From: Escherichia coli
Lineage (GTDB): Bacteria; Pseudomonadota; Gammaproteobacteria; Enterobacterales; Enterobacteriaceae
DNA length: 64,000 nt
Reading direction: 5' to 3' (one strand)
Assembly: GCF_030384885.1 (NCBI RefSeq)
Contig: NZ_CP128613.1
Positions 30,195-31,824 of the stretch are shown here, piece after piece. Numbering within the stretch: position 1 is the first letter of the stretch; each line of letters starts with the position of its first letter. A program made the translations under genes and the position numbers. Below the pieces are notes generated by a model that saw only the letters and a program-made list of their open reading frames with translations, was not told where the DNA came from and searched no databases.

Positions 30195-30747
30195 CGGAAA
30201 GCGTTTTGATCATGGTGACCAGGTCGCTGGCGTTACCATAAAGGCGTTTCCCGGTACGCCACATTTTCTGCACCTGCTCAACGAAATTTTTGCCTGACGA
30301 TGGCGGCGGCAGAAGTACCGAGATATCCCCCTGCAACAGCCTGGCGGCATCCGATACGGCAGAATCCACCACTTTCATCGCATCAGAAACATACCCCAGC
30401 ATTGTGCTGGCATTACCGACGACGTCGTTCTGCACAAAATCCGCCACGCCATCGATACTGAAACCTCTGAAACTGTCACTGATGCAGTCATCCAGTGCAG
30501 AACAGGATGACATCAGCGTCTGCGCCGTCGCCGCACCTGATGTGGGGTAAGAGAGTTCTCCCGCTTCGACAAACTTCAGGTCAAAGCGGACAATACGCCC
30601 TTCATTCTTCGATGTGCTGACCCGAACTTCCCCGTCAACACAGACTTTCAGCTCACCGTATGTCGGATGGACAAGCGTGCCGGGACCGGGTTTATTCAGC
30701 GCGTCAATCAGGCGATCGCGCTGGTCAAAGCAGTCATCTCCCACCAC
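30091..30747 (-). pseudogene. baseplate (J-like) gene fragment, truncated by the internal prophage deletion and frame-disrupted at its 3' end
   Basis: ORF overlaps the next gene by about 100 nt in another frame and ends in an atypical ...[14 protein letters not shown] tail; its 5' end abuts the deletion junction next to int. Confidence 0.4.
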
Positions 30748-30795
30748 ATAAGCCGTGATGGACGGGCGGAAAGTGATTTTCCCCAGGTCTTCGGT

Positions 30796-31824
30796 AACCT
30801 TTATATAAGAAACAATGGATATTACTGCTACAGGGACCCAAGGACGGGTAAAGAGTTCGGATTAGGCAGAGACAGGAGGATAGCAATTACTGAAGCAATA
30901 CAGGCAAACATTGAGTTATTTTCAGGACACAAACACAAGCCTCTGACAGCGAGAATCAACAGTGATAATTCTGTTACGTTACATTCATGGCTTGATCGCT
31001 ACGAAAAAATCCTCGCCAGCAGAGGAATCAAGCAGAAGACACTTATAAATTACATGAGCAAAATTAAAGCAATAAGGAGGGGGCTACCTGATGTTCCACT
31101 TGAAGACATCACCACAAAAGAAATTGCAGCAATGCTCAATGGATACATAGACGAGGGCAAGGCGGCGTCAGCAAAGTTAATCAGATCAACACTGAGCGAT
31201 GCATTCCGAGAGGCAATAGCTGAAGGCCATATAACAACAAACCCGGTCGCTGCCACTCGCGCAGCAAAATCAGAGGTAAGGAGATCAAGACTTACGGCTG
31301 ACGAATACCTGAAAATTTATCAAGCAGCAGAATCATCACCATGTTGGCTTAGACTTGCAATGGAACTGGCTGTTGTTACCGGGCAGCGAGTTGGTGATTT
31401 ATGCGAAATGAAGTGGTCTGATATCGTAGATGGATATCTTTATGTCGAGCAAAGCAAAACAGGCGTAAAAATTGCCATCCCAACAGCATTGCATGTTGAT
31501 GCTCTCGGAATATCAATGAAGGAAACACTTGATAAATGCAAAGAGATTCTTGGCGGAGAAACCATAATTGCATCTACTCGTCGCGAACCGCTTTCATCCG
31601 GCACAGTATCAAGGTATTTTATGCGCGCACGAAAAGCATCAGGTCTTTCCTTCGAAGGGGATCCGCCTACCTTTCACGAGTTGCGCAGTTTGTCTGCAAG
31701 ACTCTATGAGAAGCAGATAAGCGATAAGTTTGCTCAACATCTTCTCGGGCATAAGTCGGACACCATGGCATCACAGTATCGTGATGACAGAGGCAGGGAG
31801 TGGGACAAAATTGAAATCAAATAA
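30796..31824 (+). pseudogene. int: lambda-type integrase, 5'-truncated (corresponds to lambda Int residues 15-356)
   Basis: From NLYIRNNGYYCYRDPRTGKEFGLGRDRRIAITEAIQ... to ...HLLGHKSDTMASQYRDDRGREWDKIEIK* it matches lambda Int as I recall it. The first about 14 codons and the promoter are replaced by unrelated sequence; the in-frame upstream extension to 30667 comes from the opposite strand of a tail gene. Confidence 0.85.

Follow-up and report, generated by a model that had tools for sequence, protein, structure and literature searches.

Results and Discussion

A gtr-bearing prophage remnant at att-lambda

The window, by which we mean the whole 64,000-nucleotide stretch of Escherichia coli DNA that was analysed, carries a 6.95-kb prophage remnant (24952–31912) between ybhB and ybhC, at att-lambda. 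Its left boundary, placed by pairwise alignment to lambda attP, is attR (24952–25105, POB' read in reverse), which has the 15-bp core TTAGTATAAAAAAGC at 24952–24966 and a lambda-like P arm that keeps the P1 and P2 arm-type sites and is diverged from lambda in its central part. At the other end lies attL (31825–31912, BOP' read in reverse; core at 31898–31912), whose P' arm and core are identical to lambda BOP', and then ybhC. The only open reading frames between these sites are the gtr genes, tfa, a tail fibre gene, two tail-gene fragments and a fragment of int, and no replication, lysis, packaging or head genes were found among them. An Rfam scan of 24–34 kb returned a sole match, to naRNA4 (REP-type), which falls outside the element.

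Next to attR, two full-length genes on the plus strand are arranged in tandem as in the gtrABC O-antigen glucosylation cassette: gtrA (25310–25672), which encodes a bactoprenol-glucose flippase of the GtrA family (PHROG 2224, E=2.7e-69; Pfam GtrA_DPMS_TM, PF04138) and is collinear with its counterpart in the intact prophage of E. coli C4 described below, and gtrB (25669–26583), which encodes a GT2 bactoprenol glucosyltransferase (PHROG 34335/841; Pfam Glycos_transf_2, PF00535). The third gene of the cluster (26585–28051, plus strand) is also full length and, by its position, a putative serotype-specific transferase gene; it has a GC content of 32–38% and encodes a 488-amino-acid protein with no Pfam or NCBIfam family match and with PHROG matches only to unnamed families, which is found in exactly this form on 619 contigs. 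A GC-rich hairpin (28060–28078), with a T-run on the minus strand only, separates the gtr cluster from the converging tail-fibre genes, namely a tail fibre assembly gene (28335–28739, minus strand; PHROG 188, Pfam Caudo_TAP) and a 310-codon tail fibre gene with a glycine-rich C-terminal part (28740–29672, minus strand; PHROG 863, Pfam Gly_rich_2).

Three truncated genes complete the element. On the minus strand, a 5'-truncated gene for a Mu gp48/YmfQ-like baseplate wedge protein (29676–30153) retains codons 37–194 of 194, as judged by blastn to C4, and matches PHROG 203 over model positions 46–201. It is followed by a fragment, cut at both ends, of a DNA circularization (Mu gp43/N-like) tail/baseplate gene (30152–30796, minus strand), comprising codons 43–256 of 442 and matching Pfam DNA_circ_N and PHROG 184 'baseplate hub'; the initial annotation had correctly read the sequence to the left of int as the antisense of a baseplate or tail gene fragment. 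The lambda-type int remnant (30795–31824, plus strand) spans nucleotides 42–1071 of the gene, that is, residues 15–356.

Two internal deletions relative to an intact prophage

An intact relative of about 40 kb occupies the same position between ybhB and ybhC in E. coli C4 (NZ_CP010121.1, 3,512.6–3,552.8 kb), and prophages of this type are present in about ten complete genomes. In the coordinates of the extracted C4 locus (L003), the window aligns as three collinear blocks: 24000–30153 to 709–6862 (99.0% identity), 30152–30796 to 10613–11257 (97.7%) and 30795–33000 to 40619–42824 (99.4%). The blocks are interrupted by two internal gaps of 3,750 and 29,361 bp, and the whole is bounded by the att sites. 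The two elements share the integration site and both att sites, the three gtr genes (the third again of 488 amino acids), tail fibre, YmfQ and int, at 99.0–99.4% identity outside the DNA circularization fragment. The C4 prophage further has xis, an int of full length, genes for immunity, replication, lysis and the head, and a complete set of tail genes; of this, 33.1 kb is lacking from the window element. In the C4 annotation xis and the 5' part of int lie at 40382–40618, and the whole phage body falls within the missing intervals. Sequence of the deleted segments was not found elsewhere in the 64-kb window.

At the smaller deletion, junction 1 (30152–30153, common dinucleotide TT), codon 36/37 of the YmfQ/gp48 gene (C4 CDS 6385–6969, to which the window aligns up to 30153, corresponding to 6862) is joined to codon 256/257 of the DNA circularization gene (C4 CDS 10054–11382), and the two fragments are left out of frame with each other. 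This junction lies only 643 bp to the left of junction 2. Among complete genomes no intact copy exceeds 99.4% identity to the DNA circularization fragment, and the exact parent prophage was not found in the databases, so that the sequences on the deleted sides are inferred from relatives. No intermediate with one junction alone was present among 5,426 complete genomes. A 255-amino-acid variant of the DNA circularization protein was considered as a junction-1 intermediate and rejected, being a split allele (open reading frames of 255 and 171 amino acids) in otherwise intact prophages.

Junction 2 (30795–30796, common dinucleotide TA) marks the 29,361-bp deletion and joins antisense DNA circularization codon 42/43 to int nucleotides 40–42, as placed by alignment to the C4 prophage. 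In megablast comparisons with lambda, HK97 and some 50 further lambdoid phages, the matches start at query position 496, equivalent to window position 30795 and int nucleotide 42, and continue across int as far as the att core. The lambda match (NC_001416) stops at 28841, whereas the int gene has its start at 28882, and the window thus lacks int nucleotides 1–41. Viewed base by base, identity to lambda is unbroken from T30795 rightward and absent upstream of it. Pro14 (CCT) is replaced by Gly (GGT), and Asn15, which opens the sequence NLYIRNNGYY, is the first intact int codon. An internal deletion with lambda int identity resuming at residue 15 and with the native int start lost had been proposed from the sequence of this region, and the alignment to lambda int that was to place the breakpoint exactly bears this out, since it fixes the break at 30795 and leaves no intact int start, the first 41 nt and everything upstream being gone. 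By comparison with C4, the same deletion removed xis, the int promoters, immunity, replication, lysis and head genes and most tail genes. The absence of xis from the element, also part of the initial annotation, was upheld by tblastn searches of the 64-kb window with lambda Xis and C4 Xis, which gave no credible match; the best (E ~0.01) lies within gtrB and is therefore spurious, and in C4 xis falls inside the interval corresponding to the 29.4-kb deletion.

The exact chimeric protein created by junction 2 (see below) is encoded on six E. coli contigs in NCBI assemblies, one of them 4.74 Mb long, and two of the carrier loci match the window at 99.98% identity along 12.9 and 21.2 kb. One carrier strain is that of assembly GCA_035824015.1. 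The junction is absent from 5,426 complete RefSeq genomes, and no further carriers were found in viral or metagenome contigs. Prophage repeats often break or mis-join short-read assemblies, and one carrier contig begins within the tail-fibre gene, but a chimeric assembly, or the wrong joining of two prophages, is scarcely credible here: the junction and its flanks are identical on six contigs from different assemblies, the sequences to either side follow the order of a single intact prophage that occupies the same place in the chromosome, and the element is exactly bounded by attR and attL. The recurrence of the same junction on six E. coli contigs indicates that it is real and lineage-specific.

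The int remnant and the chimeric reading frame

Over residues 15–356 the int remnant encodes the same protein sequence as the intact int of C4, the DNA differing at one of 1,028 nt, and departs from lambda Int at three amino acids. The catalytic residues R212, K235, H308, R311, H333 and Y342 are all retained, no inactivating mutations were found in residues 15–356, the protein matches Pfam PF00589 (Phage_integrase, E=6.7e-40), and the structures PDB 5j0n and 1z1g align to it over residues 14–356. Because the protein is identical to that of C4 and its catalytic residues are kept, the event appears to be recent, with decay not yet begun.

The frame of int stays open upstream of junction 2 as far as 30667, as had been noted from the sequence, giving a chimeric open reading frame of 385 amino acids (30667–31824, plus strand) composed of 43 antisense DNA circularization codons followed by Int residues 15–356; the peptide across the junction reads DFPQVFGNLYIR. 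The extension is thus an antisense translation of the tail gene, and its single in-frame start is the ATG at 30667. No Shine-Dalgarno sequence was found before this ATG, and a promoter search for the chimeric frame gave no signal above chance, with 2 promoter-like matches against 2.5 expected from shuffles. In public records the 385-amino-acid chimera is labelled as an ordinary "tyrosine-type recombinase/integrase".

The exchange of residues 1–14 for 43 alien residues leaves the arm-DNA-binding domain incomplete. A disruption of this domain had been predicted, and this holds for the basic tail (residues 1–14), which is lost, but not for the rest of the domain, which is kept: Pfam Arm-DNA-bind_1 still matches the int remnant over model positions 13–74 of 74, and PDB 1kjk and 2wcc align to it from residue 13. 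By the title of a 2009 study of Fadeev et al. that PMC4880445 cites, a flexible tail of the arm-binding domain, once immobilised, reportedly aids recognition of the major groove by the β-sheet; in our own reading, that flexible tail corresponds to the N-terminal residues lost here.

Could this frame nevertheless be expressed, from the ATG at 30667, as a working or re-purposed tyrosine recombinase of 43 alien residues fused to Int 15–356? It is open over 385 codons and free of inactivating mutations, its catalytic residues are kept, as are the β-sheet and helix of the arm-binding domain, and neither att site is damaged; transcription might also read through from the gtr operon, as the hairpin that follows the gtr genes has no T-run on the plus strand. 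Against this, the sole in-frame start has no Shine-Dalgarno sequence, promoter signal does not rise above that of shuffled sequence, the native promoters and xis are deleted, and the extension is merely the antisense of a tail gene. The absence of decay is equally explained by recency, given the single nucleotide difference in int and the 99.98% identity of the carrier loci to the window, and the lost N-terminal tail belongs to the arm-DNA-binding domain, which comprises Int residues 1–64 (PMC9791396). We therefore regard expression of a functional chimera as very unlikely.

It had also been suggested that the prophage is locked in the chromosome. For self-excision this is supported, since xis, the native int start and the promoters pI and pL, known in lambda to serve int from inside xis and by read-through respectively, are all gone. 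It does not extend to excision with help in trans, for both att sites are kept: attL is identical to lambda BOP' and attR retains the core and the P1/P2 sites, and so a co-resident or superinfecting lambda-type phage may, as far as can be judged from sequence, excise the remnant by supplying Int and Xis.

Origin of the junctions

We consider it very probable that junction 2 was produced when DNA was lost from an integrated prophage by illegitimate deletion at the level of microhomology, which left a defective remnant. The ancestor would have been a temperate phage of about 40 kb, integrated at att-lambda between ybhB and ybhC, whose int-xis-attP module was lambda-type, its early region lambdoid, its head of the HK97 type and its contractile tail of the SfV/Mu type, and which carried a gtr O-antigen glucosylation cassette adjoining attR. 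One deletion, of 29.4 kb, would have fused codon 42/43 of the DNA circularization gene, on the opposite strand, to int nucleotide 42, and another, of 3.75 kb, codon 256/257 of the same gene to gp48/YmfQ codon 36/37. Deletion probably came about through slippage during replication or the joining of ends at 2-bp identities, without site-specific recombination. The resulting remnant would be unable to excise by itself or to form particles, its int fragment would be a young pseudogene rather than a working gene, and the retained gtr cassette is plausibly still of benefit to the host.

Several site-directed or structural origins of the breakpoint were considered and rejected. Secondary-site recombination by lambda Int was suggested by a TTTATAT in the int parent, 3 nt to the right of the junction and matching the overlap TTTATAC at 6/7 positions, but the crossover in the product lies outside this heptamer and the DNA circularization parent has no matching core. 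Recombination at Pin/Gin-type invertase pseudo-sites is at odds with the partners, which are int codon 14 and, in a second remnant described below, ydaT codon 10 rather than tail-fibre inversion sites, and the resemblance to an invertase half-site is weak and out of register. A hairpin or cruciform at the breakpoint is not supported by the DNA fold z-score of 0.12. Nor does the breakpoint coincide with a boundary between mosaic modules: all of 120 IMG/VR copies run on intact at junction 2 (117 are identical over the next 14 nt and three differ at one position), and the ends of alignments show no clustering at nt 126 or 770 of the DNA circularization CDS. Each parent has a copy of an imperfect repeat of 10 nt, GATTT[T/A]CCCC, close to the junction; simulation predicts such a repeat in only 1–2% of random junction pairs, which counts against the reading as a random illegitimate event.

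The breakpoint nucleotide in the DNA circularization gene is common to the window and to E. coli FDAARGOS_1250, a coincidence that a purely random illegitimate event does not predict. The FDAARGOS_1250 remnant lies at thrW and has a different integrase; its DNA circularization fragment begins at the same nucleotide and is fused in frame, at codon ~10, to an early gene that resembles ydaT and lies downstream of cro. Common ancestry of the two fragments is unsupported, as they differ at 13/548 nt, their nearest intact alleles differ and so does junction 1, and the sequence differences argue for independent deletions. The site, CTTCGGTA followed across the break by TAGGG, could then be a sequence-directed hot spot that repeatedly starts prophage-inactivating deletions, for example a cut site of a nuclease or topoisomerase, or a point of replication pausing and template switching. 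Breakage at the same nucleotide of a 1.3-kb gene by chance has a probability of about 1e-3, and TA, or up to CGGTA, forms the microhomology at the window and FDAARGOS_1250 junctions alike. The cases, however, number only two. Fold prediction gives neither a hairpin nor anything unusual at the site, which fits neither an invertase site nor, in the right register, a lambda att core on inspection of the sequence, and it is unbroken in all of the IMG/VR copies. Searches with the site followed by any base other than T found no other partner in viral or metagenome contigs and, among the contigs of species-representative genomes, one match in a Cytophagales MAG that we read as chance; a peptide search likewise found no other partner, the 43-amino-acid query yielding only an antisense open reading frame of an intact gene. 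On this balance a hot spot seems unlikely, and an illegitimate deletion at a short microhomology is the reading that we retain.

Relation to known prophages

The modules of the element have separate affinities. Compared with the int-xis-attP module of lambda and HK97, the int remnant is 98.2–98.8% identical in DNA and the P' arm and core are identical, whereas nothing remains of int nucleotides 1–41, of xis or of pI/pL; beyond this module the ancestral phage, with its SfV/Mu-type tail and HK97-type head, is unlike lambda. The layout is that of the Shigella flexneri serotype-converting phages SfV, SfII, SfI and SfIV, in which gtrA, gtrB and a type-specific gtr gene stand beside att and converge on a Mu-like tail-fibre/baseplate module, with about 89% identity to the window element over the shared parts. 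Those phages, however, integrate at thrW with a different integrase, while the window element lies at att-lambda in E. coli and its third gtr gene is unrelated in sequence. S. flexneri gtr cassettes also persist inside prophages stripped of structural and lysis genes (PMC5596473).

The element is an ordinary grounded prophage and represents a common kind of prophage decay. Like e14, DLP12, Rac, Qin and CPS-53/KpLE1, it has lost excision functions and kept some cargo, and e14 also retains relics of ymfQ, a tail-fibre gene and tfa. It differs from these cryptic prophages of E. coli in being young, with int undecayed and both att sites intact, and in occurring in few assemblies rather than being fixed in a lineage such as K-12. 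Grounded or cryptic prophages that lose excision functions, undergo progressive internal deletion and keep some cargo are well documented (PMC6379469), as is the survival of gtr clusters through this decay (PMC6379469; PMC5596473).

EcPF15 (NZ_CP054227.1, 1,420.7–1,427.6 kb) carries a second remnant from this prophage family, likewise at att-lambda and with the same gtr cluster, and there too the phage body has been lost by internal deletion. In that strain a single deletion has different end points, running from the tail fibre gene to a PAPS-reductase gene, and since xis and full-length int are retained, excision is not disabled in the manner seen in the window. The existence of this independent remnant, with gtr again kept, indicates that decay of these prophages is recurrent and that gtr is retained.

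Tools that use an integrase gene as a marker of mobile, excisable elements would wrongly score the 7-kb remnant as an integrase-bearing element. Only the shared breakpoint nucleotide might open a new line of enquiry: if it did mark a hot spot, this would point to a specific nuclease, topoisomerase or replication-pause route to prophage grounding or, alternatively, selection for a particular DNA circularization fragment. The remnant itself provides a clean, datable example of a serotype-converting prophage becoming fixed cargo, in which the phage body and excision functions have been lost, probably in two steps, and the gtr genes and both att sites survive; the EcPF15 remnant, of separate origin, shows that this has happened at att-lambda more than once within the family.

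Results

The element lies at the classical lambda attachment site, between the ybhB side and the ybhC side of the window, with E. coli chromosome on its left (uvrB, the bio operon and ybhB) and right (ybhC and ybhJ). On the left, the 15-bp attR core TTAGTATAAAAAAGC (24952–24966) is followed by a lambda-like P arm, while attL on the right (P' arm and core, 31825–31912) is identical to lambda; only 6,946 bp separate the two cores. The central part of the attR P arm (24967–25105), which in lambda carries the Xis, Fis and IHF sites, has diverged from lambda, unlike the core and the P1/P2 arm-type sites, which are conserved; lambda b-region homology then runs on to about 25200. 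Between ybhC and ybhJ, a 92-bp unit is repeated 2.1 times with 96% matches (33258–33452), and this tract contains an Rfam match to naRNA4, a REP-derived nucleoid-associated RNA, on the minus strand (33311–33381).

The initial annotation proposed that an internal deletion had fused a tail/baseplate gene fragment to int at codon 15. When 30300–31950 was compared with 50,697 phage records by megablast, lambda, HK97, HK629/630, 434 and others aligned only from query position 496 (30795 in the window) through int to the att core, with 98.2–98.8% identity. The lambda match stops at 28841, short of the int start at 28882, and the 5' end of int thus lacks 41 nt. Base-by-base comparison placed the breakpoint precisely, with unbroken lambda identity rightward from T30795 and none leftward; the Pro14 codon CCT becomes GGT and Asn15 is the first intact codon, as had been read. 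The sequence to the left, taken to be the antisense of a truncated baseplate-like gene, corresponds on the minus strand to part of a Mu gp43/N-like DNA circularization gene of the tail/baseplate (DNA-circ; Pfam DNA_circ_N, PHROG 184).

The left part of the element, from attR to YmfQ, is present in ten complete E. coli genomes with 99.4–99.8% identity, and in strain C4 (NZ_CP010121.1) it forms part of a complete ~40-kb prophage that occupies the same site. The C4 prophage runs from ybhB through gtrA, gtrB, a 488-aa third gene, a tail-fibre pair and gp48/47/46/45/44/43-type baseplate genes to tape measure, sheath and tube, HK97-type head, terminase, lysis genes, Q and replication genes, and then cro/cI-type regulators, yfdP-R, xis, int and ybhC. 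By blastn, the window matches the C4 locus in three collinear blocks (24000–30153 to 709–6862, 99.0%; 30152–30796 to 10613–11257, 97.7%; 30795–33000 to 40619–42824, 99.4%), so that the element corresponds to the intact prophage with two internal stretches missing, which bears out the proposed deletion and adds a second one 643 bp away.

Deletion 1 removed 3,750 bp between YmfQ codon 36/37 and DNA-circ codon 256/257, with TT at the junction (30152–30153), and deletion 2 removed 29,361 bp between DNA-circ codon 42/43 and int nt 41/42, with TA at the junction (30795–30796). The second interval contains xis (C4 locus 40382–40600) and the int start (40578), together with both promoters that serve int in lambda, namely pI, which lies within xis, and pL, farther upstream. 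No deleted DNA or Xis-like sequence was found elsewhere in the 64-kb window, in agreement with the reported absence of xis. The two deletions, with their 2-bp overlaps, thus took xis, the 5' end of int and the phage body, and left the att sites and gtr genes; both would have arisen by illegitimate recombination, through slippage or end joining. A split DNA-circ allele (255 aa + 171 aa) is also present on 24 contigs (ENA and Logan), in prophages that are complete in other respects, and numerous partial proteins of this family in the databases stop at residues 251–257, near the position of junction 1.

The int segment (residues 15–356) differs from C4 Int at 1 of 1,028 nt and at no amino acid, and from lambda Int by three substitutions. 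Of the features of a functional lambda-type integrase it retains the catalytic residues (R212, K235, H308, R311, H333 and Y342) and lacks a complete arm-binding domain, the original start codon with its promoters, and a neighbouring xis. The N-terminal domain (residues 1–64) binds arm sites and gates the catalytic domain (PMC9791396; PMC4880445). Its predicted disruption holds for the basic tail MGRRRSHERRDLPP, which is lost, but not for the sheet-and-helix body, which is kept: the Pfam match starts only at model position 13, and the solved structures 1kjk and 2wcc align from residue 13. The in-frame extension that had been noted does exist, as an ORF of 385 aa (30667–31824), although its 43 additional N-terminal codons are merely the tail gene read antisense. 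Its sole in-frame start, ATG 30667, is not preceded by a Shine-Dalgarno sequence, and 29600–32000 contains two promoter-like matches against 2.5 expected from shuffles. A hairpin after the gtr cluster (28060–28078) has a T-run on the minus strand only, so weak read-through from the cluster toward the int remnant may occur. We infer that int has here only recently become a pseudogene.

Among the remaining genes, gtrA, gtrB and the third gtr-cluster gene are full length and the tail fibre and tfa have open reading frames, while YmfQ and DNA-circ are fragments, mutually out of frame. The third gene (26585–28051; 488 aa, low GC of 32–38%) encodes a protein without a Pfam or NCBIfam match, whose PHROG hits are confined to the C-terminal part and are all unnamed. 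Identical copies occur on 619 contigs, and the representative of its 90% cluster is from Salmonella enterica; in other att-lambda prophages the allele is a different one, annotated as glucosyltransferase. A plus-strand tail fibre assembly gene fragment (~28235–28363), annotated as a pseudogene in C4, faces the intact minus-strand tfa (28335–28739). It resembles what an invertible tail-fibre segment might leave behind, although the element has no invertase gene.

The exact 385-aa chimera occurs on six contigs (e.g. GCA_035824015.1 and GCA_904842275.1), one of them of 4.74 Mb. Two carrier loci, compared over 21.2 and 12.9 kb, are 99.98% identical to the window, which excludes an assembly artefact and shows that the carriers are closely related. 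Neither junction was found in 5,426 complete RefSeq E. coli genomes, and junction 2 was also absent from GTDB species representatives, JGI metagenomes and IMG/VR. Records of the chimera (e.g. WJS54290.1, MEC4109754.1, UniRef UPI002035A057) are labelled plainly as 'tyrosine-type recombinase/integrase', and its 5' truncation and alien N-terminus are invisible there.

While searching for deletion intermediates, we met a second remnant in E. coli FDAARGOS_1250 (NZ_CP069571.1). It comes from a different prophage, lies at thrW beside proA and has another integrase, but its DNA-circ fragment (position 3117 of that locus) starts at the same nucleotide as that of the window (30796; ...CAGGTCTTCGGTA and ...CTTCGGTA). 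There the fragment is fused in frame to the beginning (~9–10 codons) of a ydaT-like gene that lies downstream of cro (MQPLTYQQT/TEDLGK...), and junction 1 differs from that of the window. With 13 differences in 548 positions and nearest intact alleles that are not the same, the two truncations are most simply read as independent events. In a 1.3-kb gene, the chance of the same nucleotide being hit is about one in a thousand. Neither a hairpin nor a mosaic boundary was found at the shared breakpoint. Viral and metagenome contigs and a peptide search yielded no further partners, and contigs of species-representative genomes gave a single match, in a Cytophagales MAG, which we read as chance. An imperfect 10-nt direct repeat, GATTTTCCCC / GATTTACCCC (GATTT[T/A]CCCC), lies beside junction 2 in both parents: in the tail-gene parent 11 nt to its left (30775–30784), and in the int parent directly to its left, in the deleted part of int just upstream of nt 42. 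In simulations, only 1–2% of random junction pairs had a match this good. There is room for a sequence-favoured breakpoint in DNA-circ, although two cases do not establish one.

Discussion

The initial observation and its interpretation are supported, with the second deletion and possible excision in trans as refinements. The remnant is probably incapable of self-excision or particle formation. However, attL and attR look competent, and the view that the prophage is locked therefore applies to self-excision only; judging from these sites, a lambda-type helper providing Int and Xis could excise the 7-kb segment.

Grounded or cryptic prophages are a known class (PMC6379469), to which the element belongs and whose members it resembles in its workings. 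Its tail and gtr layout is that of SfV, SfII, SfI and SfIV (about 89% identity), and its int-att module is of the lambda/HK97 type. The element is an ordinary case, a prophage of a known kind reduced by recent deletions within a restricted lineage, and the reuse of its breakpoint in an unrelated remnant is the sole lead worth further work.

In Shigella flexneri, gtr cassettes survive in prophages stripped of structural and lysis genes (PMC5596473), and here too the cassette plausibly keeps the remnant useful. In support of this, E. coli EcPF15 (NZ_CP054227.1, 1,420,776–1,427,563) carries at this site another remnant from the att-lambda gtr prophage family, which decayed independently, likewise lost the phage body and kept gtrA, gtrB and the third gene. 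Unlike the window element with its two deletions, it has one, from the tail fibre to a PAPS-reductase gene, and retains xis and a full-length int. The EcPF15 remnant thus represents recurrent decay with retention of gtr.
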